From positions 19,966-83,965 of the forward strand of contig JABIDS010000009.1 of the NCBI GenBank assembly GCA_018651605.1: a stretch of DNA of 64,000 nucleotides, read 5' to 3'. This document shows positions 143 to 56,749 of this stretch, piece after piece. Numbering within the stretch: the stretch's first letter is position 1; each line of letters opens with the position of its first letter. Below the pieces are notes generated by a model. It was not told the DNA's origin and did not search any database. It was given only the letters and a program-made list of their open reading frames with translations. The stretch comes from an archaeon (GTDB taxonomy: Archaea > Nanobdellota > Nanobdellia > Pacearchaeales > GW2011-AR1). A program made the position numbers and the translations under genes.

Positions 143-3100
143 ATGGTGTTGGAAAAAAAAGATGTGATTGGACATATAGAATTGACTTATATTTTGTTTG
201 TTCTTTTGTTTGTTTTGGTAGGGTTTTTGTTTAGTTTTGATTATGTTGTTGAGGAGTTTGTTAAGGAAGGTGTTGAGAGTGAGGGGGTTGGGGTTTTGGA
301 GGGTGGAGTGGAGGTTGGTGTTGGTTCTGAGGGTAGTGGTTTAGGGAGAGATGGTTTTGATGGTGATGAAAAGAAGAGTGGTTTTTTTAAGAGGATTTTT
401 GAGGGGTTGTTTGGTAAGGAGGAGGTTTTGTTTAGTCCTCCATCTATTGACTCTGTTTCTCCATTGAATGGATTATCAAAAACTGGTGAGGAACAAATAT
501 TTACTATAGAATATTCTGATCCTGAGGGATGGGAAGATTTAATCTATGGTTATGTTATTTTTGGAGCAGATTCATCTGATAGTAGGATTTTTTTAGAGTA
601 TAGGCATACTACAAAATTCGGATTAGTTAATGATAAAGGGATTATGACTTATCATTGTGATCCAGAATCAGATAATTTTTTATCTAATTCTTATGTAAAA
701 TTAGATTGTTCTAAATCTTTTGTTTCTGGTTCTGGAGATACTATGACTTTAACTTTAGCTTTAACATTTAAAGAGCCTTTTATTGGAAATTGGAAAATAC
801 TTTTAAGGACAAAAGATATTTCAGATAAAGATAAGGGTAAATGGGTGCCAATGGGGGATTGGGATGTTGAGGAAGGGGAGGTAATTATTGTTCCTGTTAA
901 ACCTCTTCCTCAAATGCGGGCACTTTATGGAGGGATTAATGAATTAAGAATTGGAGAGGGTGGGATAGATGCATACACTGATATGTTTAGGAGTTATGGA
1001 ATTAATACATTTATAACTAAACATTCTGGATTAAGAAATAATTTTATTTATGCTGATAGGTATCCAAATTCTCCTGAAAATTTTTATGAATCAATTTTAG
1101 ACCAGGCTGAGTGGGCTGAACAAAAAGGATTTGTTTTCTTTCCAATTATTGATTTTGTTCATAGGGTTAATGATCCTGATGATTTGGATGGGGATGAGAT
1201 TACAGTTTCTTCCATTACAGATAACTATGTTGTTTTTAGTGATGGTAGTGCGGGTTCACAAGTAACTCCTTTTGATGAGACTTATTGGGATTATTTAACT
1301 GATATTGCAGTGAGATTAGCAAGACTTTCAGAAAATTATGGCAAATATCGGGTTGATGGTTTAATGTTTGATTTTGAATTGTATAAAAGTGTAGAATTTG
1401 GAGAACCAAGAAAATTTGATAGGACTTTTGGTTTTGAAGATTCTACTTTTAATAATTATTTGGTTGATAGAGGTTTAGTTGAGTTGAATAGTCCTCCTAA
1501 GGAGTCTAATCAGAGGGCTGAAAGATATGATTGGTTAATAGATAATGGGAGATGGACTGATTATTATTCTTATCTTGAAGATACAATAGAAAAACTTGCA
1601 GAAAATATGAAGAGTGAGGTAAGAAAGGTTAATCCTGATTTCGTGTTAGGATTTTATCCTACGCCAGAGCCGCTTTATTTAATAGATATCCTTGATGGTT
1701 TTGGAAGTGAGGATGATCCTGCGGTTTTATTGGATACTTTTACTTATGCAATATCTTATATGGGATATTCTTATGGGGGAGAAGTAGTTCCAACAGGGAT
1801 TAGTCGTAATAGATTGCCTTCTGGTTATTTTGATGTAACTAAAAGATATCATCCTGAAAGAAATAAACCTGCGTATGCTTATTATCTTGGAGGAACAATA
1901 GCTGCTGCTTATGATCCTTTGGATTATGAAAATAAATTATATAATATTGGAAATGATGGAAATGGTTATTGGATTTATCAGGCTACTTTTTTTCTAAATG
2001 GTTTTAGGCCGGATTTACCGGGATGGGGATTACCTTGTAATAATGGGATTCGTTCTTTTAATTGTCCGAATGCTGATGCACATCAAGGTGCTGTTGACCA
2101 TTATTTGAATGAGATAAAAAATGCTAATTTAAGGTTGGGATGGGAGCCGTGTGTTCTTTCAAATGGAGGTGATGAAATATGTGATAATAAAGATAATGAT
2201 TGTAATGGAAAGGTTGATGATGGTGATTTGTGTGATAATGGAAATTATTGTGATGGTGTTGAAACTTGTTCTTCAGGAAGTTGTGTTGATGGTAGTGCTG
2301 TTGTATGTAATGATGGAATTGATTGTACTGATGATTTTTGTGATGAAGTAAATGATAAATGTGATGTAGATGAGTCTTCTTCTAGTTGTGGATGCCCTAA
2401 TGGTTTGGATTCAGAGTGTAGTAATGATGATGTTTGTGATGGTATTGAGAGTTGTAATACTGAAACTTTGGTTTGTATTGATGATGTGGATTTGGATTGT
2501 GATGGGAGTGATGTTTGTATTGATTATTCTTGTGACGCTGTTTTAGGTTGTCAAGAGAGTTTTAATAGTGCTGATTGTAATGATGGGGTTGATTGTACTT
2601 TGGGAGATAAATGTAATTTGGGTGATTGTTCTGGAACTCCTTATGATAGTGAGTGTGAATTTTTTTGGCAGTCTTGTAATCCTGTTTCTGGTTGTGAGCA
2701 GGCGAGTTGTAAGGATTGTAAGGATTGTGATACCTGGCTTGGTAGTTGTAGTTATAATGAATGTCATAATGAATGTGATTGGGGAGATGGTTGTTATTTT
2801 GAGAAGGATCCTTTGGGTGATGATTGTGTTCCATTAAGTGAAGGTTGTTCTTCTGTTGGTAGTTGTGGAGATTATTCTGTTGAGGAGTGTGTTAGTGATT
2901 TATGTGATAAGGCTCCTGTTGGTGGGAATGGTTGTGAGTTAGGTGAAAATAGGTTTGTAATTATGTCTTTTAGTCAGTATTTAGATGATTTTGCTGATGA
3001 ATGGCATCAATTAGTTCAACAGACATATATTCAAAATGAAAAAGTTATTAATAAGATATATATTGACGGTGTGTTAAGAAATACTGAAAAGTTTGAGGAT

Positions 3101-6100
3101 GCAGGAGGGTTGGTTAATAATTATGCTAATCTTAAGTTAGCTGTTGATTTGAATGGAGAAGTTGATGATGTTAAAATTTGGAATAGGGCTTTGAGTTCTA
3201 GTGAAGTTTTAGATGATAATAATGGTGTTTTGGTTTCTGATTCATTGATTGCACATTATAATTTTAATGAGGGTAGTGGGGTTGGAGTTGTGGATTCTGT
3301 AGGAGATAATGATGGTGTTCTTAATGGGGATGCAGTGAGAATTGATGGAGGAATTATTGATATTGGAACTTCAGGTTATATTGAAATTAAAGAAACTTCG
3401 GTGATGGATATTTCATTAACAGATGAGTATACTATTTCTGGTAGGTTTAAGTTATCTTCAGAAGAAACTGCAGGCAGTAGATATTTTTGGTCTGATTATT
3501 CTTGGATGAACTCAGGATTTATTGCTATAATTTTTCCTCGTGATCAGAAATTTTATTATTATAATACACATAAAGATTTGAGTGTTTGTGTTGATGCTAG
3601 TTATTGTGGGGATGGTGTTTGTGGTTTTGAGTCTGGAGAGAATTGTGGTGGTTGTGAGGAGGATTGTGGTTGTTCTGGTGAGACTCCTCATTGTTCTAGT
3701 GGGAATTGTGTTGAATGTGAGAGGCCTAGTGATTGTGATGATGGATTATATTGTAATGGTGTTGAAAGTTGTGTTGATGGAAGTTGTGTTGATGGAAGTG
3801 TTATTAATTTTGATGATAGAGTTGGTTGTACTATGGATAGTTGTGATGAAGTTAATGATGTGATTGTTAATGTTGTTGATGATGGTTTATGTCAGAATGG
3901 AGATTGGTGTGATGGTGTTGAGAGTTGTGACGCTGTTTTGGATTGTCAAGATGAGGTTGATCCTGATTGTAGTGATGTTTATAGTTGTAGTGTTGATAGT
4001 TGTAGTGAGGGGTCGGTAGTTGGGGATAATTTAGGTGTTTGTGATTATGATACTTCTGGTTGTGGATGTTTAGTTGATGGTGATTGTGATGATTCAAATG
4101 ATTGTACTGATGATTTTTGTAATGCTCAACGTGAATGTGATAAGACGAATAAGATTAATGGTTTTGTCTGTGATGATGGGAATTTATGTACTGAGGATGA
4201 TAAATGTTCTGTTGGGGTTTGTAGTGGTTCTGCTAGGGATTGTTCTTCTTTAAGTGATCAGTGTAATGATGGTGTTTGTGATTTAGATGATGGTTTGTGT
4301 AAGGCAGAGGTTAAGATTAATGGTTTGAGTTGTGATGATGGTTTGTTTTGTAGTGTTAGTGATGTTTGTGGGAATGGTGTTTGTGGTGGTTCTTCTAGAG
4401 ATTGTTCATCCTTTAATGATCAGTGTAATGATGGTGTTTGTGATGATGTTTTGAATTTGTGTAAGGCTGATGCTAAGGTTAATGGTTTGGATTGTGATGA
4501 TGAGGTTGATTGTACTGTTGAAGATAAATGTAGTTTTGGGGATTGTAAGGGTCGTGTTGATGATAATGAATGTGAAGATTGGGAATCTTGTAATCCTGTT
4601 TCTGATTGTGGGCAAGTAACTTGTTCAAGTTGTAAGGAATGTGATAGTTGGCTTAGTGGTTGTGATTATAATGAATGTCATAATGAATGTGATTGGGGGG
4701 ATGGATGTTATTTTGATTCTAAGTTTGGTGAGAATTGTGTTTCATTAGTTGATGGTTGTTCTTCTGTGGATAGTTGTGAGGATTATTCTAGTGAGGAATG
4801 TGTTAGTGATTTGTGTGGTAAGGCACCTTCTTCAAATGGGTGTGAACTTGATGGAGATGATTGTGTTGCTGTTAGTTATTGTGGGGATGGTGTTTGTGAT
4901 GTTGGTTCTGAAGATTGTAGTAGTTGTGTTGAAGATTGTAGTTGTTCTGGGAATGTTGATTTGAAGCAGTGTTCTAGTGGAAGTTGTGTTGAATGTTTGG
5001 AGGTTGATGATTGTGATGATGATAAGAGTTGTACTAATGATTTGTGTACAAATAATGTTTGTGTTTTTCCTGAGATTGATTCAGATGGAGATGGTTATGG
5101 TGCTTGTTTAGGTATAGGGTTTGATTGTGATGATGGGGACCGGGATGTTAATCCTGGGGTTGAAGAGAGTTGTAATAATGTTGATGATGATTGTGATGGT
5201 TTGACTGATGAGAGTTTGAGTCAGGCTACTAGTTGTGGTGTTGGTTTGTGTTTAGGTAATGTTGGTGTTGAAACTTGTTCTTTAGGTAGTTGGATTGGTG
5301 ATACATGTGATGAAGATGATGGTGCTGTTGATGAAGTTTGTAATAATGCCGACGATGATTGTGATGGTTCTACTGATGAGGGTTGTGCTTGTTCATTAGG
5401 TGATACTCAACCTTGTGGTAGTGATGTTGGAGAATGTGTTGCTGGTTCTCAAGTTTGTGATATTAATGGTATTTGGGGGGATTGTGTTGGTGGGCAAGGA
5501 CCTGTTGTTGAAATTTGTGATAATAAGGATAATGATTGTTCTAATGGGATTGATGATGGCTTGAGTAGGGGAACAAGTTGTGGGGTTGGGGCGTGTTCTG
5601 GGAATAGTGGGGTTGAAACTTGTTCTGCGGGTGTTTGGGGAAGTGATACATGTGATGATAAAGCTGGTGCTGTGAGTGATGCGAATTGTAATGGTGTTGA
5701 TGATGATTGTGATGGTTCTAAGGATGAAGATTATGTTTCGGTTGATACAAGTTGTGGGGTTGGGGAGTGTTTGGGGAATAGTGGTAGTTGGAGTTGTGTG
5801 AGTGGGAATGAGGTTGATAGTTGTGATGAATATGCTGGGAAGGTTGAAGAGAGTTGTGATGATGAAACTGGTTTTGATGGTTTGGATAATAATTGTGACG
5901 GTAATGTTGATTTAGATTGCGAATCTATTTGTGATAAAGATGGAGATGGTTATACAAATAATTTAATTTGTTTACCTGCTTGTTTAATTTATGGTTGGAA
6001 TTGTTTGAGTTTGGATTGTGATGATTCTAATGTAAATATAAATCCTAGAGAGGATGAATTATGTAATGGTATTGATGATGATTGTGATGGTGGAACAAGT

Positions 6101-7975
6101 GATGGAGTTGATGAGGATTGGTTTGGAGATGAGACAGGGTGTGGGGTTGGGGAGTGTGCTGCGGTTGGGGAACAATTATGTATAAATTCTCAAAAAACAA
6201 ATACATGTCAAGAAGGTGTTGCAGAGTTAGATGATAAGAGTTGTGATGGGAAGGATAATGATTGTAGTGGTGATGCTGATGAAGATTATATTTCTTTAGT
6301 TACTGATTGTGGTATTAATGAATGTTTGAGAATCGGGATAACATCATGTTCTAATGGAGAGGTTTTGGATTCTTGTGTTGTTGGAACTTCTGAACTAGAG
6401 ATTTGTGATGGTAAGGATAATGATTGTGATGGGAAATTTGATGAGGGTTGTGATTGTTTATTAGGTGATAGTCAACCTTGTGGGAGTGATGTTGGTGAAT
6501 GTGTTGTAGGTTTGCAGACTTGTAATATTAATGGTAATTGGGGAGATTGTGTTGGTGGTCAGGGTCCTGTAGAGGAGATTTGTGATGGTTTGGATAATAA
6601 TTGTGTTGGAGGGGTTGATGAAGGTGGAAATAGTTTATGTGATGATTCTATTGATTGTACTGATGATGTATGTAATGGTGTGAGTGAATGTTCTTATACT
6701 GAGAATCATGGTCTTTGTGAGAATAATTTATTTTGTGATGGAGAGGAAAGATGTAGTATTGATGAAGAGAAATGTATTTCTATAAAGACTCCTAATTGTG
6801 AGGATGTTTTTTCATGTACTGATGATTCTTGTGATGAGGGTTTGGATAAGTGTGTTAGTGATGAAAATTCTGGGAATTGTTTGACTGGGCAGATTTGCGA
6901 TGTTCTTAATTTTGTTGCTCCAACTGGTTGCGGTTATGTTGAGAATTGTGTTGATAAAGATGGTGATGGGTTGTATGATTATGATGAGAATTTTTGTTCG
7001 GAGGGTGTTGATGAGTGTTCTGGAACAAATAAGGGTTATTTTGTTAGGAATCCTTTTAAGTTGAATGATTATTTGCCTAAGGTTGGAAAGTTTAATATTC
7101 CTTCGGTGAATGCAGGAAATATTTTGAATTTTGAGAATTTTAGTGTTGAGTATAATGGGACTAAAATTAATTTTGTTGATAATGTTAGTTTGGTTAAAGT
7201 GAATGCTAGCGGTTGTTTTGAGGTTATTAATTTAAGTGAGATTGTTTTGTTTGAGGATGGTAAGTTGAGTGTGAATACGAGTTTGATGGATGGATTTGAT
7301 AAGCCTGCACTGTTGAAGTTTAGTGGAATTAATTTTGAGAACCCTCAGATTTATAGGGATGATGTTAAGTGTGTTGATTGCGAGATTATTAATTATTCTA
7401 AGGGAGAATTTTTAGAGGTCATGATTACTGGTTTTGTTTCTTATGATGTTAAGGAAGGGGCTTATTGTGGGGATGGTGTTTGTAATGGTGGTGATAGTTG
7501 TTCTAATTGCGTTGTTGATTGTGGGGTTTGTTCTGCAGGTGAGGGAGGTATTCTTGGAGGAGGTTCTGGGAGTTCTGGTGGTGGTGGTGGTGGGAGTCCT
7601 AGTGGTCCTAGTGGTCCAAGTGGAGGAAATCCTAGTGGTTTAAATATAAATCAAAGTAGTGTTGTAAATGTTTCTTATCCTAGTAGTTGTGTTGAAACTT
7701 GGTCTTGTAAGGATTGGAGTGAATGTAATGAGAGTGTTCAGAGAAGGGAGTGTTCGGATGTTAATGATTGTGGGAGTGAGGAGTATAAGCCTATTTTGGA
7801 GAAGGAATGTGTTGAGAAGAATAATGTTATAAAACTTGCTGTTGCATTTTTTATATCTTTTTTTGTTTCAGGAATAGTTGCTGTTTTGATTGTTGTTTAT
7901 TTTAAGATTAGGGATAGAAGGAAGAGTGTTATTAGAGATTTGCATAAGAATGGTTATCATGGGTTTAAGTGGTGA
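143..7975 (+). CDS. giant cysteine-rich cell-surface protein (2610 aa) with MopE-like CDxxDNDCDG metal-binding-type repeats, LamG/ConA-like blocks and C-terminal TM anchor
   Basis: Uninterrupted 7.8 kb ORF. N-terminal hydrophobic segment LTYILFVLLFVLVGFLFSF. Hundreds of Cys in repeated CxxxC and CDNKDNDCDG..DE units. Two blocks with a LamG-like signature (IYIDGVL...VDDVKIWNRALSSSEV). Gly/Ser/Pro linker GGGSGSSGGGGGGSPSGPSGPSGG. C-terminal TM LAVAFFISFFVSGIVAVLIVVYF followed by basic KIRDRRK. Confidence 0.85.
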   Translation: MVLEKKDVIGHIELTYILFVLLFVLVGFLFSFDYVVEEFVKEGVESEGVGVLEGGVEVGVGSEGSGLGRDGFDGDEKKSGFFKRIFEGLFGKEEVLFSPPSIDSVSPLNGLSKTGEEQIFTIEYSDPEGWEDLIYGYVIFGADSSDSRIFLEYRHTTKFGLVNDKGIMTYHCDPESDNFLSNSYVKLDCSKSFVSGSGDTMTLTLALTFKEPFIGNWKILLRTKDISDKDKGKWVPMGDWDVEEGEVIIVPVKPLPQMRALYGGINELRIGEGGIDAYTDMFRSYGINTFITKHSGLRNNFIYADRYPNSPENFYESILDQAEWAEQKGFVFFPIIDFVHRVNDPDDLDGDEITVSSITDNYVVFSDGSAGSQVTPFDETYWDYLTDIAVRLARLSENYGKYRVDGLMFDFELYKSVEFGEPRKFDRTFGFEDSTFNNYLVDRGLVELNSPPKESNQRAERYDWLIDNGRWTDYYSYLEDTIEKLAENMKSEVRKVNPDFVLGFYPTPEPLYLIDILDGFGSEDDPAVLLDTFTYAISYMGYSYGGEVVPTGISRNRLPSGYFDVTKRYHPERNKPAYAYYLGGTIAAAYDPLDYENKLYNIGNDGNGYWIYQATFFLNGFRPDLPGWGLPCNNGIRSFNCPNADAHQGAVDHYLNEIKNANLRLGWEPCVLSNGGDEICDNKDNDCNGKVDDGDLCDNGNYCDGVETCSSGSCVDGSAVVCNDGIDCTDDFCDEVNDKCDVDESSSSCGCPNGLDSECSNDDVCDGIESCNTETLVCIDDVDLDCDGSDVCIDYSCDAVLGCQESFNSADCNDGVDCTLGDKCNLGDCSGTPYDSECEFFWQSCNPVSGCEQASCKDCKDCDTWLGSCSYNECHNECDWGDGCYFEKDPLGDDCVPLSEGCSSVGSCGDYSVEECVSDLCDKAPVGGNGCELGENRFVIMSFSQYLDDFADEWHQLVQQTYIQNEKVINKIYIDGVLRNTEKFEDAGGLVNNYANLKLAVDLNGEVDDVKIWNRALSSSEVLDDNNGVLVSDSLIAHYNFNEGSGVGVVDSVGDNDGVLNGDAVRIDGGIIDIGTSGYIEIKETSVMDISLTDEYTISGRFKLSSEETAGSRYFWSDYSWMNSGFIAIIFPRDQKFYYYNTHKDLSVCVDASYCGDGVCGFESGENCGGCEEDCGCSGETPHCSSGNCVECERPSDCDDGLYCNGVESCVDGSCVDGSVINFDDRVGCTMDSCDEVNDVIVNVVDDGLCQNGDWCDGVESCDAVLDCQDEVDPDCSDVYSCSVDSCSEGSVVGDNLGVCDYDTSGCGCLVDGDCDDSNDCTDDFCNAQRECDKTNKINGFVCDDGNLCTEDDKCSVGVCSGSARDCSSLSDQCNDGVCDLDDGLCKAEVKINGLSCDDGLFCSVSDVCGNGVCGGSSRDCSSFNDQCNDGVCDDVLNLCKADAKVNGLDCDDEVDCTVEDKCSFGDCKGRVDDNECEDWESCNPVSDCGQVTCSSCKECDSWLSGCDYNECHNECDWGDGCYFDSKFGENCVSLVDGCSSVDSCEDYSSEECVSDLCGKAPSSNGCELDGDDCVAVSYCGDGVCDVGSEDCSSCVEDCSCSGNVDLKQCSSGSCVECLEVDDCDDDKSCTNDLCTNNVCVFPEIDSDGDGYGACLGIGFDCDDGDRDVNPGVEESCNNVDDDCDGLTDESLSQATSCGVGLCLGNVGVETCSLGSWIGDTCDEDDGAVDEVCNNADDDCDGSTDEGCACSLGDTQPCGSDVGECVAGSQVCDINGIWGDCVGGQGPVVEICDNKDNDCSNGIDDGLSRGTSCGVGACSGNSGVETCSAGVWGSDTCDDKAGAVSDANCNGVDDDCDGSKDEDYVSVDTSCGVGECLGNSGSWSCVSGNEVDSCDEYAGKVEESCDDETGFDGLDNNCDGNVDLDCESICDKDGDGYTNNLICLPACLIYGWNCLSLDCDDSNVNINPREDELCNGIDDDCDGGTSDGVDEDWFGDETGCGVGECAAVGEQLCINSQKTNTCQEGVAELDDKSCDGKDNDCSGDADEDYISLVTDCGINECLRIGITSCSNGEVLDSCVVGTSELEICDGKDNDCDGKFDEGCDCLLGDSQPCGSDVGECVVGLQTCNINGNWGDCVGGQGPVEEICDGLDNNCVGGVDEGGNSLCDDSIDCTDDVCNGVSECSYTENHGLCENNLFCDGEERCSIDEEKCISIKTPNCEDVFSCTDDSCDEGLDKCVSDENSGNCLTGQICDVLNFVAPTGCGYVENCVDKDGDGLYDYDENFCSEGVDECSGTNKGYFVRNPFKLNDYLPKVGKFNIPSVNAGNILNFENFSVEYNGTKINFVDNVSLVKVNASGCFEVINLSEIVLFEDGKLSVNTSLMDGFDKPALLKFSGINFENPQIYRDDVKCVDCEIINYSKGEFLEVMITGFVSYDVKEGAYCGDGVCNGGDSCSNCVVDCGVCSAGEGGILGGGSGSSGGGGGGSPSGPSGPSGGNPSGLNINQSSVVNVSYPSSCVETWSCKDWSECNESVQRRECSDVNDCGSEEYKPILEKECVEKNNVIKLAVAFFISFFVSGIVAVLIVVYFKIRDRRKSVIRDLHKNGYHGFKW

Positions 7976-7989
7976 TTTGGTTGGGTTGG

Positions 7990-8370
7990 ATTTTCCACCA
8001 CCCACGGAAAGCCGGTTTCACCTTTCCCTTTCCGTGCCGTTGCAGTCTTAAAAAGTTGTTAGAGGGTTTATTTATTCAGAGGAGTTTTCTTTGGTTGTTG
8101 TTAAGAGATTGGTTTGGTTATAGATGGGAAAGGTGTTTTGTAGAGAGTTTAAGATTTAGGAGATTCAGAGAATTAAAAATTCTCTGACTTAGAAAAATAA
8201 GCTATAAGCCCTATTATTTTTCTAATTTCAGTATTTAGCGGAGCGCCCTGACTAAGTCGGGTGCGAGAGCGATATAAAATAAGTTATGAGCTGAAGGAGA
8301 ATGAATCATGGATGGAATAAATGAACCGAAAGAGAATGAATCTATGCGAGCGATAGTGAATGAATCTAAT
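7990..8370 (+). repeat. interspersed repeat family A, copy 1 (structured intergenic element, ~380 bp, contains 9-bp-arm palindrome and an inverted GAC-loop hairpin)
   Basis: Shares blocks (cGGAAAgccg; caCTTTCCCTTTCC; ttgttagaGGGTTTATTTATTCAGAGgag; ATAAGCCC; aaaTAAGTTATGAGC; GAATGAATCTAtGCGAGCG) with copies at 11735-11885 and 56345-56630. Palindrome cagagaatt/aattctctg at 8166-8188. Segment gcggagcgccctgactaagtcgggtgcgagagcg resembles the reverse complement of the hairpins at 45560 and 46799. Confidence 0.7.
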
Positions 8371-8377: not shown

Positions 8378-10426
8378 TCACTCAATCCTACTAATCCCGT
8401 TATCTTTTTGTATTCTTATTATGTTATCTACAAAACCTTCAATTTTTTGTTCATGAGATACTAGGATGAGTTGTTCTGTGTTTAGTTGATGAAGGACATC
8501 TCGCATTTTATCTAATTGTTGGTCTGAGAATCCATCTGTTGGTTCGTCTAGGATGACTAGGTTTGATGTTTTAATGTTGCTTAATAGGGAATTGATGACT
8601 TGGTTTAAAGAGAGACGGTATGCAAGGGCTATTGCTGTTCTTTCTCCTCCGCTTAAGAATGAATAATCTAATTCGTAATCTTGTTGAGTGATTACTGGTG
8701 AAAAGTCGTCATCTAGCGAGGCTGTTAAGGAATCCGAGACAAGTGTTGAGAACCAATCTGAGAATAATGTTGAGAATTCTTGTTTTAAACTTAACATTAC
8801 TTGTTTTTCTGTGAAAAGGATGAGGTCTAGGAATTTGTTTGAAATCCAAGATTCAATGTGTTTGATTTTTTCTGCCTTGGTTTTTATTTCTTGTTTCTTT
8901 TGTATTTTTTCCTTGACTTCATTAATCTGTATTCCTAATAGTTGAATTTCTTTATTTGTTTCTGCTTTTTTTATTGCTAATTTTTCTTGATTTGTTTTTG
9001 TTTGATTTAGTTCTTCTTTTTTTGTTTTGTAAATTGTTTCATATTTGTCGTATTCTTTTATTGATTTTTCTATTGTTTCTATGTGTTTTTTTAATGTCTC
9101 TGTATCTTCATTTGTTGCTTGCATTTGTTTTTCTAAGTCTTGTATTCTTTGTTGTTTTTCTTTGATTGTTTCTAATTTTACTTTTCTAATTTCTAAGTCT
9201 GATTTTCTTTTTTTGTATTCTTCTATTGAATTTTTTATTGATTCTAATTGTTTTTCTAAATATGTTCTTTGTTTTGTTAATTGATTTATTGATTCTTGTA
9301 ATTGTTTTATTTCTTGGCTTGTTTTTTGAGATATATTTTGTTTGTAATTTTCTGAAACTTCTTGAAGGCAGGTTGGACAATTTTCTAAGTGAGATATTTT
9401 GTTTTGTAGGCTTTCTGTTTCTTGTTTTTTTGAATCTTGTGAATTTATTTTACTAACTATTTGTATGAATTCTTTTTCTAATTCTTGATGTTTGGATTCT
9501 TGGAATTTTACTCTTTGGTCTAATGCTGTGTATTCTCCTTCGTCGAATTTTAATTCTTGAGTTTCTTTTAATTGATATTGAATATTGCTAATGTTATTTT
9601 TTGTTGAAGTTATTTGTTGAGATTTTTCTCTTATTAAAAGTTCTGATTTTGATTTTTCGTTTTCTAATGTTTGTTTTTGGTTTATTTTTTCTTGAACTTC
9701 TTCAAGTGCTTTTTCTTTTTCTTTTGATTTTTCTAATGCTTGTTCGTGTTGCTGTGTTAATTGTGTTTTTAATTTTTTTAAGTCTTCTAAGTTTTGTTTT
9801 TTGTTTTCTAGGTTTTGTTTTTCTTCATCAATGTCTTGAGTAATTAATTCAAAAAGTCTTGCTTTTTCTCTTAATTTTGAAGTTAATATTGATAAATTTT
9901 CTTCTATTCTCTTATATTTGTCGATTCCAAAAACATGTCTTAATGTGTTTAGTCTTATGTCTCCTGGTTCTAGGATTATTTGTTTCATTTCTTCCTGGGG
10001 AGTGTAGACTGTGAATTTGTATAGAAGGTTTGTTTTTTTTGCGAATTCTGGAGGGTAGTTTAGTAATTTTAGAATTTTTGATTTTATTTCTGTTACAGAG
10101 CCTTCGAATTTTTCTTGGTTTATTGTTATTGATGAATAATCTTGTGTTACTGATTTTTTTGTTTTTTTAAGGGACCTTTCTATTATTATCTCTTTATTGT
10201 CTATTTCTAAATGTAGTTCTACTTTTGCTTGTTCTTGATTGGTTTTGAGAAGTGATGTTCCTTTTTGTGAGGGCTGTAGGCCGAAGAGTGCGAATTCTAT
10301 TGCAAGGAGTATTGTTGTTTTTCCTGCTCCTATGTCTCCTGATAAAAGTGTTGAACCTTGTGGGAATGTTATTGTTTGGTCTTCGTAGCTTCTTATGTTT
10401 TGGATTTGGAGGGATTTTAGTTGCAT
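8378..10426 (-). CDS. rad50: DNA double-strand break repair ATPase Rad50 (compact, 682 aa)
   Basis: Walker A GDIGAGKTTILLAIEFALFG. Long coiled coil with zinc hook CPTC. ABC signature SGGERTAIALAYRLSL. Walker B LVILDEPTDGFSD. Start overlaps the mre11 stop. Confidence 0.9.
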   Translation of the reverse strand: MQLKSLQIQNIRSYEDQTITFPQGSTLLSGDIGAGKTTILLAIEFALFGLQPSQKGTSLLKTNQEQAKVELHLEIDNKEIIIERSLKKTKKSVTQDYSSITINQEKFEGSVTEIKSKILKLLNYPPEFAKKTNLLYKFTVYTPQEEMKQIILEPGDIRLNTLRHVFGIDKYKRIEENLSILTSKLREKARLFELITQDIDEEKQNLENKKQNLEDLKKLKTQLTQQHEQALEKSKEKEKALEEVQEKINQKQTLENEKSKSELLIREKSQQITSTKNNISNIQYQLKETQELKFDEGEYTALDQRVKFQESKHQELEKEFIQIVSKINSQDSKKQETESLQNKISHLENCPTCLQEVSENYKQNISQKTSQEIKQLQESINQLTKQRTYLEKQLESIKNSIEEYKKRKSDLEIRKVKLETIKEKQQRIQDLEKQMQATNEDTETLKKHIETIEKSIKEYDKYETIYKTKKEELNQTKTNQEKLAIKKAETNKEIQLLGIQINEVKEKIQKKQEIKTKAEKIKHIESWISNKFLDLILFTEKQVMLSLKQEFSTLFSDWFSTLVSDSLTASLDDDFSPVITQQDYELDYSFLSGGERTAIALAYRLSLNQVINSLLSNIKTSNLVILDEPTDGFSDQQLDKMRDVLHQLNTEQLILVSHEQKIEGFVDNIIRIQKDNGISRIE

Positions 10427-11631
10427 TATATTTCCTCACTAAAATTTATATCCAATACCTTACCTAATCCTAAAAGCAATCTTGATTCAAAAGTTGCTGA
10501 TTTTTCGTCTTCTTGTTTTTCTAGGGTGAGGGCTTCCATGAGGGGGGAGATAAGTTTGTTGTTGTTTGAGGGGTTTTCTTTTTCATAGGTTTTAATTAAG
10601 GTTTCTTCTATTTTTTCTTTGTTGTGGTTTGGGTCGCTGAATTCTATTTGTAGGTCTTGTCTTTCTACTTCAAGTTTTGAGGTGTTTTTTAGAAATGAAT
10701 ATGCATTTTGTTTTTCTATGAAGTCTTGTATTTCTTGAAATTTTATGTCTGTGTATTTTCCTTGTTTTAATATTCCGAAAAGTTTTAAGAGGATTATTTT
10801 ATCTTTGAGTTCTCTTTTTTCTAGTTCTTTGATTATTTTTTCTGTTGCTTTAATTGCATTGTCAATTTCTATTTTGATTAGTTCTACTGGTTTTATTTTT
10901 ATTTCTTTTTTTGTTACTTTTGTGTAACCTGCGACTTCTATTATGTAAAATGCTCCTTGTTTTAGTTCTTCTAGTTCTTTGAAGTTGTTTGGGAATGTTG
11001 GTCCTCCGTAAACTGCAGGTTTGTTGTTTACTTCTTGGTTGAAGTCTATGTGGATGTGTCCTAAAGCGTAGTAGTCTGCTTGAGGGAGTTGGTCTAAGGG
11101 AATTGAGTCAATTGGTAGATTTTGTGCAGCTTCTTTGACTGTTGTGTGGAGCATCAGTATTCTGAAGTTTTCTGAATATGGCTGATTTATTTTTATTTTT
11201 CTTAATGATTCTACTTCGAGTCCTGATTTTTTTCCAGGGTATCCATAGATGTAACATTCCTTGTCTCTTATTGGTTCTAGTGTTATTTCTTGAGTTTCTT
11301 GGTTTTCTTGATATTTGCAGATTTGACAGAATCCTGCTTTTTCTAGGACGTCTAGGAATGTTTTTCCTGAGACAGAATAATCATGTGAGCCTGCGATGAT
11401 GTAGGATTTTATGTTTGCGTCTTTTAGTTTTTTGAATTCGCTGAAAGCGAATTTTAGGGTTTCTATTGATGGGAATGCTGAATCAAATAAGTCTCCTGCG
11501 AATAATATGAAATCTACTTGTTCTTCTATTGATGTATTAATTGCATAGGTGAATGATTGTCTGTTTAGTTCTTGTAGTTCTGGTTGGCGCCATCCTCCTA
11601 AGTGTGAGTCTGCTATGTGTGAGAATTTCAT
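10426..11631 (-). CDS. mre11: DNA repair nuclease Mre11 (calcineurin-like phosphoesterase)
   Basis: Motifs MKFSHIADSHLG, GDLFD and AGSHDY are typical of Mre11/SbcD. Operonic with rad50. Confidence 0.9.
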   Translation of the reverse strand: MKFSHIADSHLGGWRQPELQELNRQSFTYAINTSIEEQVDFILFAGDLFDSAFPSIETLKFAFSEFKKLKDANIKSYIIAGSHDYSVSGKTFLDVLEKAGFCQICKYQENQETQEITLEPIRDKECYIYGYPGKKSGLEVESLRKIKINQPYSENFRILMLHTTVKEAAQNLPIDSIPLDQLPQADYYALGHIHIDFNQEVNNKPAVYGGPTFPNNFKELEELKQGAFYIIEVAGYTKVTKKEIKIKPVELIKIEIDNAIKATEKIIKELEKRELKDKIILLKLFGILKQGKYTDIKFQEIQDFIEKQNAYSFLKNTSKLEVERQDLQIEFSDPNHNKEKIEETLIKTYEKENPSNNNKLISPLMEALTLEKQEDEKSATFESRLLLGLGKVLDINFSEEI

Positions 11632-11734: not shown

Positions 11735-11885
11735 GGGATCAATTCCCCTGGCGGAAAGCCGTGCTTCGCACTTTCCCTTTCCTCCCTTTTGTCTTGGTAA
11801 ATTGTTAAAGGGTTATTTTATTCAGAGAATCTATAGATTCTCTGACTCGTAAAAACGAGCCATAAGCCCCATCGTTTTTCCGATG
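11735..11885 (+). repeat. interspersed repeat family A, copy 2 (short version, with perfect 10-bp-arm palindrome)
   Basis: Blocks gcGGAAAGCCG, CACTTTCCCTTTCC, ttggtaaattgttaaaGGGTTATTTTATTCAGAG, palindrome cagagaatct/agattctctg (11823-11844), then gactcgtaaaaacgagccATAAGCCCC. Same order as in copy 1. Confidence 0.7.
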
Positions 11886-12069
11886 AAGATGAGTTTTCCT
11901 TGGTTTTTAAGGATTAATAGGTATTAGAAGGTTTATTTCATATCGATTTACCCTTTGAAAGGTGATTTAGTATATAAGTGTTGCGTTACTATTTTATAAT
12001 TAGTATATATTTGTGTTTGTGGAAGATTTGATATGTTTGGATAATCTTTTTATAATAGGTTTTCTTTAG

Positions 12070-19082: not shown

Positions 19083-19361
19083 ATGAAAGCTTTGAAGCCG
19101 TCGCATAGAGAAAGGAAGAGATATTTGTTGATTAAAGGTAATGATGCTAGTTGGTCTAAGATTGAGAAGGTGATTTTGGAGTTTGTTGGTGTTTTGGGTT
19201 TTGCTGAGGCAAGTCCTAGTGTTGTTAAGTCTTTGAAGGGGAGAGTTGTTTTGGCTATTAATCGTGGGGCGTTAGATAAAGTTCGTGCTGCGTTTTTAAT
19301 GAGTGGGAAGAATTTGGAGATTGTTAAGGTTAGTGGTAGTTTGAAGGGGTTGGGGAAGTGA
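19083..19361 (+). CDS. rnp2: RNase P protein subunit Pop5 (Rnp2)
   Basis: MKALKPSHRERKRYLLIKG… matches the archaeal Pop5 N-terminal LPP(S/T)LR(E/D)KKRY(I/L) signature and C-terminal …LxIVKVSGSLKGL. Start taken at the ATG at 19083 inside the longer track ORF. Confidence 0.7.
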   Translation: MKALKPSHRERKRYLLIKGNDASWSKIEKVILEFVGVLGFAEASPSVVKSLKGRVVLAINRGALDKVRAAFLMSGKNLEIVKVSGSLKGLGK

Positions 19362-19470
19362 GGGGTGTTGGGAAGGTTAAGTAACTTGGTTCGCTTTTGC
19401 TCACAACTTATTTTATGGTTCAACTGCCGGCTTTCGCCTGGCAGTTTCTCTAATTTTTCTTAATATTGTG
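19362..19470 (+). ncRNA. candidate structured ncRNA / repeat (family B, copy 1): GGGGTGTT…TTGGTTCGC…hairpin aactgcc[GGCTTTCGCC]tggcagtt + T-tract
   Basis: ~85% similar to 27330-27470. Hairpin 19422-19446 has fully compensatory stem changes relative to the second copy, with a conserved loop GGCTTyCGCC. Followed by taattttt. Confidence 0.5.
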
Positions 19471-19563
19471 TAAATTTTAGAAATTAGGAGGATGAGTTTT
19501 ATCCTTAAGTTAAGATTCTATTTTAGCAATCAGATTTAAAAACCTCTTTATCTAATTAATAGT

Positions 19564-20301
19564 ATGGATATTAATGATATAGAGAATTTTGAAAAAGAAA
19601 AATCAAAATACTCTAAGAAGGACTTTAATGAAATAAAGTCCTCCATTAAAAAAGCATGGAAATGGATTTGGAATTCTGATTCTATTTTGAGTTGGATTGT
19701 GGCTCTTGGTTTTATATTTGTTGTTGTAAAGTTTGTTTTCTTTCCTGGGCTTTCTTTAATTATGGGGACATCGTTGCCTTTGGCTGGTGTGGAGTCGTCT
19801 TCAATGGATCATCAAATTGTTAAGGATGATTTGGGGCGTTTGAATTTATGTGGGAATAGTTATTCTAGTTCTGAAAAAGAGTGGATTAATTTTAATGAGT
19901 ATTGGGATGCTTGTGGTGATTGGTATGATGATGTTGATATTAGTAAGAATGAGTTTTCAGATTTTTCATTGAAGAATGGATTTAGAAAAGGAGATATTAT
20001 AATTGTCTGGGGACGTTTTAGTCCGAAGGTTGGAGATGTTGTTATTTTTCAACCTAATTCTGGTTCTTTGGCTCCTCGTCCTATAATTCATAGGATTGTT
20101 TCTATTGATGGTGATGGAGTTATTGCTACGAAAGGTGATCATAATGCTGGGCAGTTAAATGGAAATAATAATTATTATAAAACTGATGAGACAAATATTG
20201 GGGAGTCGCAGTTGATTGGTAAGGCTGTTTTGAAGGTTCCTTATTTGGGGTGGGTTAAGATTTGGTTTGTAGATTTGGTGAAGATGGTTATGGGAAGATA
20301 G
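19564..20301 (+). CDS. signal peptidase I (S26/Sec11-type)
   Basis: N-terminal TM. Catalytic-Ser box GVESSSMDH. GDIIIV and IHRIV boxes typical of archaeal type I signal peptidase. Confidence 0.75.
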   Translation: MDINDIENFEKEKSKYSKKDFNEIKSSIKKAWKWIWNSDSILSWIVALGFIFVVVKFVFFPGLSLIMGTSLPLAGVESSSMDHQIVKDDLGRLNLCGNSYSSSEKEWINFNEYWDACGDWYDDVDISKNEFSDFSLKNGFRKGDIIIVWGRFSPKVGDVVIFQPNSGSLAPRPIIHRIVSIDGDGVIATKGDHNAGQLNGNNNYYKTDETNIGESQLIGKAVLKVPYLGWVKIWFVDLVKMVMGR

Positions 20302-23773: not shown

Positions 23774-23829
23774 AGATTAATTTATTTGAAACCAAAGATT
23801 AAAAAAGGCTTTTTTTCTTATTAATTTAT

Positions 23830-23904
23830 GGCTTGTTAGCTCAGTCTGGTTAGAGCACTAGACTCTTAATCTAGGTGTCGGGAGTTCAAATCTCCCACAG
23901 GCCA
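23830..23904 (+). tRNA. tRNA-Lys (anticodon CTT), 75 nt, no encoded CCA
   Basis: Manual cloverleaf: acceptor GGCTTGT/ACAGGCC; D arm GCTC-AGTCTGGTTA-GAGC; anticodon arm CTAGA-CTCTTAA-TCTAG; T arm GGGAG-TTCAAAT-CTCCC; discriminator A. Confidence 0.85.
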
Positions 23905-23975
23905 TTTATATCTTAACACTAAATCTAAGATGTAGAAAATTATGAAGGATTAAATACATTTAGATATTTTGTAGC

Positions 23976-25462: not shown

Positions 25463-25603
25463 GTAAAGTTAGTACTATCAACTGTTTAAGATAATTTTTT
25501 CTAAAATAGACACTGTGTCATATATAATCCAAAACTCTTAATCCAACACATATATCAATAAGAAAATTAAAAAACCATAAATACCTCATAAATTCATACT
25601 CAT

Positions 25604-25678
25604 GGCTTGTTAGCTCAGTCTGGTTAGAGCACTAGACTCTTAATCTAGGTGTCGGGAGTTCAAATCTCCCACAGGCCA
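25604..25678 (+). tRNA. tRNA-Lys (anticodon CTT), second identical copy
   Basis: 75/75 identical to 23830-23904. Confidence 0.85.
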
Positions 25679-25782
25679 TTTATGGCAGAGATTTTCACTC
25701 CAAGGAGTTTCCATAAAGGATGACTCAAAGGTTATTTGAGCCGCAAATCTCATCAGGCCATTTAAATTAATGTTAATAATTA

Positions 25783-26229
25783 TTAATCTCTTGAAATTAT
25801 TGAATTGAAGTCTAAATCATATGTTTTTCTTTGAATAACCTCAGAAGTAGTATCCGGATGTTTCTCCCTTGCATCTGAATAAATTACAGATAATTGATTC
25901 ACAAATTCATCATAATTTAATACTATTTCAGAACCTATTATATTTGGTACTCCAGATACAAAAGATAAGAATTGAAAATGATTTCTATAATTATCATTTC
26001 CTCTCATAGCTTCTTCAAACTCATTAGGAGAATTTCCGATAGTATCAACTGATTGAAGGACTTTATGAGCAAATTGTCCCACTACGGTTTCAATAGATTC
26101 ATTAATCCTTCTAATCTCTGATTCTTGTTTTTGAGTTACCATACGGATAATCTTCAGATATTTACTATATAAATCCTTCGATTTTAACAAATATACTAAA
26201 AAATAATCACTGTGCCATATATAATCCAA
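25783..26229 (-). CDS. hypothetical protein
   Basis: 148-aa ORF immediately followed by a tRNA-Lys 3' fragment. Confidence 0.4.
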   Translation of the reverse strand: MDYIWHSDYFLVYLLKSKDLYSKYLKIIRMVTQKQESEIRRINESIETVVGQFAHKVLQSVDTIGNSPNEFEEAMRGNDNYRNHFQFLSFVSGVPNIIGSEIVLNYDEFVNQLSVIYSDAREKHPDTTSEVIQRKTYDLDFNSIISRD

Positions 26230-26231
26230 TA

Positions 26232-26273
26232 CTCTTAATCTAAGTGTCGGGAGTTCAAATCTCCCACGGGCTA
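26232..26273 (+). other. tRNA-Lys 3'-half fragment (anticodon loop to acceptor 3' strand; att-like remnant)
   Basis: ctcttaatctaagtgtcgggagttcaaatctcccacgggcta vs tRNA ctcttaatctaggtgtcgggagttcaaatctcccacaggcca. Preceded by a ~40-bp direct repeat (cactgtgYcatatataatccaaWactcttaatc) also present at 25507-25548. Confidence 0.75.
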
Positions 26274-26928: not shown

Positions 26929-27234
26929 TTAATGTACTGTTCTTTTTATAGCGTCGATATGTTCTGCGATTTCTTCGCCTTTTTTTGTCAACTCTATTAA
27001 TTTTATTCTACCTTTTTTTTCAAATTTCACTAGTCCTAATTCTTCTAGTGTTTGTAGTATCTTTACTGCATGTGAATACGTACAGTCTACTTCTTTCGCT
27101 AATACAGAACCGTATCTTGCCTTAGATAGTTTTCTTAAAGCTACCAACATTAGTGCTGGTTTCCTTCTGAAAAAAATGTCAAAATTATCTTTCATTTTAT
27201 TGTGTTTCAATGAGTGCTTTTTTATGGTACTCAT
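26929..27234 (-). CDS. small winged-helix DNA-binding protein (putative transcriptional regulator)
   Basis: LAKEVDCTYSHAVKILQTLEELGLVKFEKKGRIKLIELTKKGEE resembles the wHTH recognition helix plus wing of MarR/ArsR-like small regulators. Confidence 0.5.
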   Translation of the reverse strand: MSTIKKHSLKHNKMKDNFDIFFRRKPALMLVALRKLSKARYGSVLAKEVDCTYSHAVKILQTLEELGLVKFEKKGRIKLIELTKKGEEIAEHIDAIKRTVH

Positions 27235-27329
27235 TTGAATCTATATATTTAAGTCATATATTAGCTTATAAAGCTTTCGTAGTAAAAATTTAACCAAGCA
27301 GTAACAAATTATTTTTACTTAATTTTTGA

Positions 27330-27470
27330 GTAGCGGGGTGTTACTACTTGTTTTTTGTTGGATTTTGGGAGATTGGTTCGCCTTCGGCTCACGGCTTATT
27401 TTATGTCAGATTGGATGGCTTCGCCAACCCAATCTTCTAATTTTTTTGATAGTGTGAATATTTTATCTAG
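27330..27470 (+). ncRNA. candidate structured ncRNA / repeat (family B, copy 2): hairpin agattgg[ATGGCTTCGCCAAC]ccaatct + T-tract
   Basis: Collinear with 19362-19470: GGGGTGTT; TTGGTTCGCCTTCGGCTCAC; CTTATTTTATG; hairpin 27408-27435 with covarying stem; ctaattttttt. Confidence 0.5.
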
Positions 27471-27559
27471 ATATGAAAGGATGAGTAGATTGATTGTTAT
27501 AAGAATTTAGTTTTTTGTTGTTATGAGTGTTTGGTTTTTGAAATTTTATTAATAATAGT

Positions 27560-28174
27560 TTATTCATCAACACTTATTTCTTCGCCTGTGATTTCTTTAT
27601 ACATTGCTAGATAACCTTTGCTTGCGAGTTCGACTTTGTTTGCTACCATCTCAATTTCGGTGTTGTGGTTTGTTACAGATGTTTTCATGAATGTTTCAAT
27701 GTCTGGAGAAAGCAGGGCTTCGATAGCTTCTTGTTTTGAGATTGAGATTGTGAGGTCTTTATCTGTTGATGCTGCTTTTGTTGTTTGTAGATTGTTGTTT
27801 GTTATTTCAGAAGACCAGATTTCATTTTCTATTGCGAATTCAACGACAGGGTTTCCATAACCTATTAGAGATTTGTGTAAGTTGTTTACTCCTAATGCTA
27901 TTAAAAGATAATTTATGTATTCTTGATTGAATTCTATTGTTGCTTGTTCTATTACTTTTTGTTTGTCTACGAGTCCTTCTGCATTTGTGTTTGCAAAGAC
28001 AATATCTTTTAGAGGGTTTTCTATTGTTATTTGGTTTGTTGATTTTTTTGAGAAGAAACCGATTAGAAAGATTGCTATAATTATTATAGTTATTATTGTT
28101 AGTGTTAGTAGGACTTTTGAGATTTTTTTATGTTTTCTGAATTTATCTCTTATTAGAACTTTTTGATTCACCAT
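27560..28174 (-). CDS. hypothetical membrane-anchored protein
   Basis: N-terminal TM LLTLTIITIIIIAIFLIGFF after a basic stretch. 204 aa. Confidence 0.5.
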   Translation of the reverse strand: MVNQKVLIRDKFRKHKKISKVLLTLTIITIIIIAIFLIGFFSKKSTNQITIENPLKDIVFANTNAEGLVDKQKVIEQATIEFNQEYINYLLIALGVNNLHKSLIGYGNPVVEFAIENEIWSSEITNNNLQTTKAASTDKDLTISISKQEAIEALLSPDIETFMKTSVTNHNTEIEMVANKVELASKGYLAMYKEITGEEISVDE

Positions 28175-54174: not shown

Positions 54175-54310
54175 TTTTTTAACATGGCAAAAAATTTAAG
54201 AAAAAACAAATTTTTTGAAATCTTAAAATTTCAAAAAGAAAAATTTTAACATGGAAAAAATTAAAATTTTTAGTATATTAAAATTCCAAGAGGAAGAATT
54301 TTAACATGGC
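54175..54310 (+). repeat. tandem triplication (~60-bp period) of the minD start region ttttaacATGGCAAAAA, creating two micro-ORFs (MAKNLRKNKFFEILKFQKEKF; MEKIKIFSILKFQEEEF)
   Basis: aattttaacatggcaaaaa at 54178, aattttaacatggaaaaaa at ~54243 and aattttaacatggcaaaaa at ~54297. Each micro-ORF stop TAA overlaps the next ATG context (ttTAAcATGg). Confidence 0.6.
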
Positions 54311-56344: not shown

Positions 56345-56630
56345 CCCTCCCCACGAAAATCCGTTCCTTGCGTCACTTTCCCATTTTCTTCCTTTTGTTT
56401 TGGTAAGTTGTTAGAAGGTTTATTTTTTCAGAGGAGTTTTTCTTTTTGGTTTCGTTTGAGTGCTAAGTTGGTTTTGTGTAGATTTTAAAAGTTGGGAGAT
56501 TTTAAGAAAATTGGGTTAACGAAGTTTCCTAATTTGACATAAAATAAGTTATGAGCGGAGCGAATGAAACTATGGGAGAAGGATAAGTGAGTGAAGCGAA
56601 TGAATCTAAGCGAGCGGAGCGAGCGTTGAA
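56345..56630 (+). repeat. interspersed repeat family A, copy 3
   Basis: Shares cacGAAAAtccg; CACTTTCCCaTTttcttCC; ttggtaagTTGTTAGAAGGTTTATTTTTTCAGAGGAGTTTTTC; gttttgtgtagatttt…gggagatt; ATAAAATAAGTTATGAGCGGAGCG; GAATGAATCTAAGCGAGCG with copy 1, in the same order. Confidence 0.7.
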
Positions 56631-56644
56631 CTATTAATTTTTAT

Positions 56645-56690: not shown

Positions 56691-56749
56691 ATCATTACTA
56701 AGTAGTAACTTATAGATAAATTTATAAAGCCTATAATTGTCATAATTTT

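Follow-up and report, generated by a model that had tools for sequence, protein, structure and literature searches.

A modular, structured intergenic repeat in a DPANN archaeon with likeness to bacterial REP and BOX elements

In bacteria, REP/BIME elements (repetitive extragenic palindromes and bacterial interspersed mosaic elements), which are mobilised by REP-associated tyrosine transposases (RAYTs), are short imperfect intergenic palindromes typically found just after genes, with stems that vary in sequence while their pairing is kept. They have been reported to act as terminators or to stabilise mRNA 3' ends. The BOX elements of pneumococci and the Correia elements of Neisseria are modular and resemble miniature inverted-repeat transposable elements (MITEs): the number of sub-units varies, other hairpin modules can be inserted, presence differs between related strains, and the strongly structured elements are co-transcribed with neighbouring genes. 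In archaea, terminators of the aCPSF1/FttA type consist of two or more runs of U4+ downstream of stop codons, and in Methanococcus at least two U4 tracts form a termination signal that is bound by aCPSF1 (PMC8716108). The intergenic repeat described here was found in a 64,000-nt stretch of contig JABIDS010000009.1 (GenBank assembly GCA_018651605.1), referred to throughout as the window. The source is a DPANN archaeon, because homologues of its RNase J-like gene, 57-85% identical, sit in metagenome-assembled genomes labelled Pacearchaeota, Woesearchaeota or Nanoarchaeota. DPANN genomes are tiny and densely packed, and almost nothing is known of their non-coding DNA, terminators and small mobile elements. 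It is plausible, though somewhat short of probable, that the sequences described below form a lineage-specific modular intergenic repeat of the REP/BOX/MITE kind which, when co-transcribed, would serve as a 3'-end cassette made of U-tracts and hairpins.

The intergenic placement close behind genes and the variable but still paired stems of REP/BIME elements recur in the archaeal repeat. It differs from them in its host, in the absence of a GTAG-type 5' tetranucleotide and in being a composite of two different hairpins with conserved linear blocks, and no RAYT/Y1 transposase gene was seen in the window by a scan of open reading frames (ORFs) that was not exhaustive. Compared with REP/RAYT or IS200/IS605 elements, the two hairpins of the element differ from each other and its orientation is independent of the replication strand. 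The likeness to BOX and Correia elements extends to the sub-units, here one to three tandem mini-hairpin units per copy, and to the insertion of foreign hairpin modules, here in the copy L101 (loci on other contigs are designated by L numbers). Unlike BOX and Correia elements, the repeat has no detected terminal inverted repeats or target duplications, and there is no sequence similarity to them. Runs of U4+ after stop codons are shared with the archaeal U-tract terminators; those known form no homologous sequence family and need no hairpin, whereas this repeat contains non-U motifs that do not vary and does not share the direction of transcription in every copy. As in bacterial intrinsic terminators and small RNAs (sRNAs) derived from 3' untranslated regions (3' UTRs), copy 1 has, at a gene end, a GC-containing hairpin with oligo-U behind it and a U-rich single strand between two hairpins, but across the archaeal family the hairpin is not consistently followed by oligo-U. 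By analogy, the repeat is read as an archaeal counterpart of the bacterial REP/BOX/Correia-type elements.

Two look-alike stretches had been picked out in a sequence-only reading of the window as a candidate sRNA family of two copies. They proved to be real homologous copies (copies 1 and 2, Table 1), with 69 of 96 positions identical from TTGGTTCGC to ATTTTA (pairwise E 6e-8, or about 3e-5 when scaled to the window). Past ATTTTA, a weaker similarity runs on to AGGATGAG. The repeat family itself begins at GGTTCGC, and the 5' anchor GGGGTGTT, which had been taken as part of the element, is coincidental. In copy 1 it belongs to a relic of the Pop5 gene: the Pop5 end in the locus L115, ATTGGGAAAGTTAAGTGA, matches the window sequence GTTGGGAAGGTTAAGTAA at 19367-19384 in 15 of 18 positions. 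At copy 2 it is part of the upstream region of a winged-helix gene, and this flank is also conserved in relatives without the element (GCAGAGTGTTACTAC). The present Pop5 stop codon, at 19359-19361, arose by duplication of about 26 nt, and copy 1 starts after it, so that the supposed overlap with the last Pop5 codons does not exist.

Both main hairpins are perfect and have no stem sequence in common, AACTGCC/GGCAGTT in copy 1 and AGATTGG/CCAATCT in copy 2. Stem covariation held as further copies were added. Since MAFFT alignments were not structure-consistent for all copies, a hand alignment together with nhmmer was used in place of a covariance model. In the hand alignment of seven copies, itself adjusted to fit the structure, Watson-Crick pairs filled 100 of 101 stem cells and 11 of 15 pairs showed two-sided changes; none of 2000 shuffles reached the observed value and slid controls paired 23-43 cells. 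RNAalifold, applied to an untouched MAFFT alignment of four copies, returned the same two hairpins with 98% of the cells paired, as against 22-55% in slid controls and with 2 of 500 shuffles reaching the observed level. Extended to about 145 nt, RNAalifold gave no consensus pairing outside the two hairpins. Compensatory changes were also seen in the mini-hairpin, where pair 1-12 changes from G-C to A-T in copy 3 and in the copy behind the Rad50-like gene, pair 2-11 changes from T-A to C-G in the upstream unit m1, and copy 2 has gained an extra C-G pair. Copy 3 has a single A·C mismatch in its main hairpin. The compensatory hairpins of two paralogous copies are thus real, but do not by themselves establish an sRNA gene.

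The window holds more than the two copies first proposed, as nhmmer and pattern scans revealed a third, diverged copy and partial copies. A search of a metagenome collection with the pattern GTTCGCN{3,5}GCTCACNNYTTATTTTA gave 13 matching stretches, among which L093, L097 (identical to L105), L100 and L101 were accepted as family members and L102 as a partial copy; with L086, at the winged-helix locus of a relative, related contigs supply six more distinct copies or partial copies. All full copies have the same module order: (T)AG, the mini-hairpin GTTCGC-loop(3-5)-GCTCAC, two variable bases, YTTATTTTAT, a two-tier hairpin, TCTAAT and an AT-rich block TTGATAGTGTGTAAATYTTTA, here called block 4, in which lies one more U-tract. 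The two-tier hairpin comprises an outer stem of 7-8 bp, a small asymmetric internal loop, an inner stem of 3 bp and a loop of 3-4 nt, and the whole element measures about 70-125 nt. A repeated, structured element family is therefore genuine. Two sequence features emphasised at first reading were upheld in part: the loop GGCTT(T)CGCC is common to copies 1 and 2 but conserved only within the genome of the window, relatives having GGACAAGTCC, GGACGAATCC or AGCTTTGCT, and an oligo-T run of T5-T7 follows the hairpin in both copies but is absent from L093, L097 and L100.

The family appears to be narrowly distributed in the sequences covered. Neither regular expression nor nhmmer found a copy in the 80 loci from more distant GTDB relatives that surround RNase J homologues (identity 57-85%, 1.1 Mb in all), and there was none in nine further loci around the winged-helix gene of relatives, and scanned viral contigs gave no match to the repeat. 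The remaining stretches (the eukaryote-like repeats L094, L095, L099 and L103, the GC-rich L096 and the bacterial L098 and L104) have only a 27-nt motif in common with the repeat and were not counted. About 1-3 chance matches were estimated for a search pattern of this size, and contigs sharing the 27-nt motif only were treated as chance or unexplained non-members.

Orthologous sites in relatives were compared. In L013, the closest relative by GTDB, the gap between Pop5 and the signal-peptidase-like gene is 38 nt and contains no element, and the signal-peptidase promoter is conserved between the two genomes beyond the insertion. In L115, which belongs to the same organism as L086, this site is taken up by other hairpin modules, with T8 and a sequence like block 4 behind them. 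Upstream of the winged-helix gene, the element is present in the window and in L086, the site is empty in L087, L089 and L106-L114, and L088 has an insert unrelated to the element. In L086 the copy is closer to copy 1 than to copy 2: the flanks are identical in 33 of 34 and 14 of 14 positions, but the hairpin is unrelated (8 of 25). L097 and L101 agree in every position over 68 nt, which is a recent duplication as judged from the alignment, and then diverge because two other hairpins have been inserted in L101, where a 60-nt insertion separates block 4 from the hairpin. Given the indels between close relatives and the swappable modules, a mobile or turning-over intergenic repeat fits better than a conserved sRNA gene.

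The position of the copies relative to genes would agree with a role at transcript ends. The mini-hairpin lies 0-27 nt after a co-oriented stop codon at Pop5, PheRS-beta (L097), L100, L102, a relic of an HD-domain gene and Rad50. Being directly behind the Pop5 gene, copy 1 would be the Pop5 3' UTR. In the sense orientation each copy has three to five runs of T>=4, compared with none to two in the other orientation, and this also holds for the minus-strand copy 3; the U4 in YTTATTTTAT is invariant. An aCPSF1-type terminator calls for at least two U4 tracts just before the transcript 3' end together with factor-dependent cleavage (PMC8716108); of these traits, the sequences show the number of tracts, in the sense orientation. 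In the reading proposed here, copies come and go at intergenic hot spots, as a rule within 0-27 nt behind a stop codon, where they are also duplicated in part or broken up by inserts, and a co-oriented copy, such as copy 1 behind Pop5, would be transcribed as the 3' UTR of the upstream gene. Its U4+ tracts, at least three in number, would act as aCPSF1-type termination signals, and the hairpins may define or protect the transcript 3' end and insulate the next gene. Structured gene-end repeats that turn over between close relatives would mean that REP/BOX-like elements exist even in DPANN genomes, and the family supplies concrete sequences for probing transcription termination in this lineage.

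Several observations weigh against the proposed 3'-end role and against mobility. Copy 2 is inverted with respect to the sole gene able to read into it (27560-28174, minus strand), there being no plus-strand gene upstream; L086, too, runs against the gene from which it might be transcribed, and L093 lies in a divergent region. A 3'-UTR role therefore cannot hold for all copies. Archaeal termination proceeds without need for hairpins (PMC8716108), and a terminator role leaves the invariant GTTCGC/GCTCAC arms unexplained. Of the marks of a MITE, empty and filled orthologous sites are present; terminal inverted repeats were found flanking none of 6 copies, nor was there a clear target-site duplication. 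An 11-nt direct repeat GTTTTTTGTTG flanks copy 2 (27350-27360 and 27510-27520) but apparently lies inside the inserted DNA. No partner transposase or recombinase was identified among the 10 window ORFs scanned, a scan that was not exhaustive, and mobility is something we infer solely from the pattern of presence and absence. The remaining difficulties come from folding. The summed minimum free energy of the mini-hairpins is -6.7 kcal/mol in sense and -20.3 kcal/mol on the opposite strand; the conserved tandem mismatch reads U·C/C·U in sense but G·A/A·G on the opposite strand. All non-Watson-Crick stem positions are A·C in sense and thus G·U in antisense (the internal loop of copy 2 and L097, the stem of copy 3, and twice in the upstream unit m2), and the opposite-strand loops include GAAA (copy 1), UUCG (L093) and GUAA (L093 mini-hairpin).

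Table 1. Repeat copies, partial copies and the adjoining Pop5 relic in the window, with positions in window numbering
Feature	Position	Strand	Basis
Relic of ancestral Pop5 3' end (GG GGT GTT GGG AAG GTT AAG TAA), contains GGGGTGTT, outside the repeat	19362..19384	+	L115 comparison
Copy 1 mini-hairpin GTTCGC-TTTT-GCTCAC; pairs 1-12, 2-11, 5-8, 6-7; tandem mismatch 3/10, 4/9	19389..19404	+	sequence
Copy 1 invariant U-rich box CTTATTTTATG (U4 tract)	19407..19417	+	sequence
Copy 1 main hairpin AACTGCC-GGC-TTTC-GCC-T-GGCAGTT	19422..19446	+	sequence
Copy 1 tail TCTCTAATTTTTC (T5)	19447..19459	+	sequence
Copy 1 AT-rich block 4 (CTTAATATTGTGTAAATTTTAG), then AGGATGAG	19460..19496	+	sequence
Copy 2 mini-hairpin GTTCGC-CTTCG-GCTCAC, one additional C-G pair	27376..27392	+	sequence
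Copy 2 U-rich box CTTATTTTATG	27395..27405	+	sequence
Copy 2 main hairpin AGATTGG-AT-GGC-TTC-GCC-AAC-CCAATCT	27408..27435	+	sequence, pairing analysis
Copy 2 tail TCTAATTTTTTT, block 4 (GATAGTGTGAATATTTTATC), AGGATGAG	27436..27485	+	sequence
Copy 3 (diverged): mini-hairpin ATTCGC-TCC-GCTCAT, CTTATTTTATG, hairpin AAATTAGG-A-AAC-TTC-GTT-AA-CCCAATTT	56508..56565	-	nhmmer E 8.7e-4
Two additional mini-hairpin units in tandem, 5' of copy 3: m1 GCTCGC-TCC-GCTCGC, m2 ATTCGC-TTC-ACTCAC	56587..56624	-	sequence
Partial copy ATTCTC-CTTCA-GCTCAT-AACTTATTTTAT, then a different hairpin; downstream of Rad50-like stop (ORF end 8378)	8273..8302	-	pattern scan

These folding results are also the basis of an alternative in which each copy would encode an RNA of about 65-75 nt on the opposite strand, consisting of a 5' two-tier hairpin, the single-stranded AUAAAAUAAG and a mini-hairpin GUGAGC-loop-GCGAAC closed by tandem sheared G·A pairs, and converging on the 3' end of the upstream gene. 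The main hairpins too are more stable on that strand (summed -88.9 versus -76.9 kcal/mol in sense), and the folding z-scores are -3.4 and -2.0 compared with -2.2 and -0.15, so that the folding energies favour the strand that the sequence-only reading did not choose. Such an RNA would moreover be co-oriented with the flanking genes at the locus of copy 2 and in the bacterial L104 elements. The alternative nevertheless appears unlikely, as block 4 contains no promoter-matrix site in copies 1 and 2, L097 or L101, only 3 of 9 copies have a U-tract behind the mini-hairpin, and the L101 insertion falls between block 4 and the hairpin. Most A·C mismatches are in minus-strand copies, where the strong strand mutation bias (GC skew 0.2-0.7) would yield A·C without selection, and the argument from loops is post hoc, concerning about 6 tetraloops.

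The promoter matrix was learnt from 48 upstream regions of the window and used with a cut-off of 6.5 bits. Its motif, RAAANNTTTAWAWA, ends exactly 21 nt 5' of the ATG in about 19 of the 48 genes, and from this spacing the mRNAs appear to be mostly leaderless. The matrix recovered the promoters of the signal-peptidase-like gene (8.1 bits, predicted start 19564) and of the winged-helix gene (10.7 bits). No site of at least 6.5 bits was present upstream of or inside copies 1 and 2 on either strand, and the YTTATTTTAT box and block 4, scanned as promoters in both orientations in copies 1 and 2, L097 and L101, likewise contained none. For an autonomous archaeal RNA gene, a BRE/TATA promoter would be expected some 21-26 nt before the 5' end of the RNA. 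Such a gene is therefore unsupported on either strand.

A second alternative, again unlikely although several observations agree with it, is that the repeat is a selfish or neutral palindrome acting as DNA only, either as a single-stranded or cruciform substrate of a recombinase or transposase or as the product of templated quasi-palindrome correction at replication. The stems are strictly Watson-Crick apart from the one cell mentioned, with no sense-strand G·U, and the near-identical flanks of copy 1 and L086 enclose unrelated hairpins. Relative to transcription, copies are found in either orientation, their presence varies among relatives, and unrelated inserts are found at the same hot spots. 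GCGAAGC and GCGAAAGC, which form very stable DNA mini-hairpins, occur in copies, and the same 27-nt core is part of a palindromic element from bacteria that has terminal inverted repeats. A simple palindrome, however, does not predict the asymmetric tandem mismatch or the invariant arms, and the orientation does not follow the replication strand, with two copies on the plus and two on the minus strand of the window under a uniform GC skew. Terminal inverted repeats, a target-site duplication and, in the scan described above, a partner enzyme were looked for without success. L093 contains the sole transposase observed; the insertion sequence (IS element) to which it belongs is unrelated to the repeat, with different ends and a 9-bp target duplication of its own. 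That IS element (L093 1531-2773) encodes a DDE_Tnp_1 transposase of 317 aa and a DUF2080 protein of 69 aa, is bounded by 15-bp inverted ends (GGCTTTGCGTATAAA) and the target duplication TCGTGGGAG, and was inserted some 30 nt 5' of the L093 copy of the repeat.

The bacterial likeness comes from L104, a contig with a flagellar gene cluster (flgH, flgI and flgA), in which two palindromic elements of about 130 nt with long terminal inverted repeats were found at 8420-8560 and 10596-10745. Their centre reads GTTCGC-N4-GCTCAC-NN-TTTATTTT, with an orthologue in L098, and keeps the invariant arms and variable loop of the archaeal repeat. One bacterial copy of this type is identical to the archaeal L093 in 27 of 27 positions, including the unconstrained loop and spacer bases; given the 1-3 chance matches expected from the database search, this identity may be a coincidence, though it may also reflect real homology. 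On one strand the invariant core is GTTCGC-loop-GCTCAC followed by NN and YTTATTTTAT, and on the other AUAAAAUAAR-NN-GUGAGC-loop-GCGAAC with the tandem G·A. That it could be a functional motif shared across domains, either the recognition module of a recombinase or RNA-binding protein mobilising cassettes in DPANN archaea and bacteria or a new class of antisense sRNA, is very unlikely.

The same low standing, that of a highly doubtful proposal, applies to a model taken from the sequence-only reading, in which each copy would be an autonomous trans-acting sRNA of about 100 nt, transcribed from the plus (sense) strand and terminated at the hairpin and oligo-T. In its favour, T5-T7 follows the hairpin in copies 1 and 2 and L086, the conserved single-stranded U-rich decamer between the hairpins resembles an Sm/Hfq-type binding site and copy 2 has no plus-strand gene upstream. 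Against it, neither copy is preceded by a promoter-like site, the proposed 5' end is unrelated flank, the element abuts stop codons, the oligo-T is not conserved, and close relatives lack the element at the orthologous sites.

Known RNA classes were compared with the repeat. A search of the window and 14 loci against Rfam 15 at the gathering threshold returned only tRNAs, and at E<=10 both strands of both copies gave chance-level matches only (best E 0.1), so the covariance-model search proposed for novelty produced no match to the copies. ARAGORN found no known RNA there either. Box C/D and H/ACA features had also been suggested for checking. In seven copies neither RTGATGA nor TGATG occurs on either strand, a single CTGA being present on the antisense strand of copy 2, and no C/D box could be assigned. 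An H/ACA sRNA, which has a large internal pseudouridylation pocket and a K-turn or K-loop in the upper stem, was rejected because the internal loop measures only 0-2 by 1-3 nt and an ACA 3' of the hairpin is not conserved, the antisense strand after the hairpin reading GAACCAUA, GACAUA or UUCAUA. A K-turn of the kind bound by L7Ae was excluded since the antisense tandem G·A is flanked by Watson-Crick pairs on both sides without a 3-nt bulge, and by inspection of the sequences no canonical stem longer than 2 bp could be drawn in a consistent way for all copies. Compared with the three-stem hammerhead ribozyme and its core CUGANGA ... GAAA, the antisense (N)GUGAGC..GCGAAC lacks A6 and A15.1, CUG is present only in L097, and there is no Rfam match. 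A T-loop was ruled out on sequence. An integron attC site, a long imperfect palindrome whose outer boxes R'' (RYYYAAC) and R' (GTTRRRY) pair with one another, was discounted, as GTTCGC pairs with GCTCAC only 3-5 nt away and the ends of the element are not mutually complementary.

Bacterial-type intrinsic termination and protein coding were considered as well. Hairpin-dependent termination is not known for an archaeal RNA polymerase. An intrinsic-terminator scan flagged copy 1 (9 pairs, tail TCTCTAATTT); copy 2 and L086 have T5-T7, whereas L093, L097 and L100 have no T-run directly after the stem, and terminator-like sites across the region were at the shuffle level (4 versus 4.0). Indels between copies shift the frame and no reading frame is conserved, which rules out a coding sequence. 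Small ORFs of 9-16 aa follow block 4 in most copies, with no common length or sequence; the longer ORF of L093 extends into a tRNA gene and can be dismissed as spurious. A literature search on DPANN small RNAs and terminators gave nothing relevant.

The window has a G+C content of about 31%, and its plus strand shows a very strong G>C skew. The skew is positive almost throughout, reaching 0.7 in 2-kb windows, and is accompanied by T>A. Copy 1 lies between an ORF of 111 aa and the signal-peptidase-like gene at 19564-20301. The 111-aa ORF is weakly Pop5-like (PDB 6k0a_A, E 0.019; NCBIfam PRK03717, E 0.021), the alignment running from end to end. In L005, which represents the same organism on one low-coverage contig (1.3x), GGA stands in place of the Pop5 stop codon TGA at about 36-50, probably as a sequencing error. 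Copy 2 is located between two minus-strand genes, the winged-helix gene (26929-27195) and an ORF of 204 aa (27560-28174). The winged-helix product is a very conserved protein of 88 aa with 3700 homologues. A conserved inverted repeat with the arms CAAGCAGTAACA ... TGTTACTACTTG, complementary in 11 of 12 positions, lies upstream of its gene at 27293-27356 (plus strand). It is kept in L086-L088 and degenerate in L089, and could serve as an operator or form a small structured RNA.

Nearby, two identical genes for tRNA-Lys(CTT), at 23829-23905 and 25603-25679, are accompanied by a 3' half-copy at about 26228-26272 that extends from the anticodon arm to the 3' end. The DNA between these genes and the winged-helix gene differs in content from that of the relative L013, and the region looks like the result of serial integration of mobile elements into tRNA-Lys. 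Around copy 3, the units m1 and m2 come after a partial duplicate of the HD-domain gene, taken from its 3' end. The final ~58 nt of that gene (coding ...NPDLDWADERESKEIK*) recur at 56643-56700, about 700 nt downstream (region 56606-57400, minus strand). The two versions, about three-quarters identical by eye, flank a plus-strand ORF of 182 aa with its own strong promoter (56715-56728, 10.7 bits), and the arrangement looks like an insertion into the 3' end of a gene that brought a replacement end.

A second structured repeat family was observed at 8166-8230 and 11823-11890, both on the plus strand, and also inside L101 and L115. It consists of a hairpin CAGAGAAT..ATTCTCTG followed by a hairpin with a 12-bp stem, in which compensatory differences (TTAGAAAAATAA/TTATTTTTCTAA versus TCGTAAAAACGA/TCGTTTTTCCGA) surround the conserved loop GCYATAAGCCC. 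Most direct-repeat families in the window stem from a giant ORF of 2610 aa (143-7975, plus strand) with Cys-rich repeats of CxDxxDxDCDG-like units. Tandem repeats of about 24 nt and multiples thereof (GTTGATGGTRAAGGGGTTATGKGGGT) occupy 46649-46786. At 54188-54305, directly 3' of a plus-strand gene, overlapping AT-rich palindromes with stems of 7-11 bp are clustered, with AACATGG(C/A)AAAAA recurring among them.

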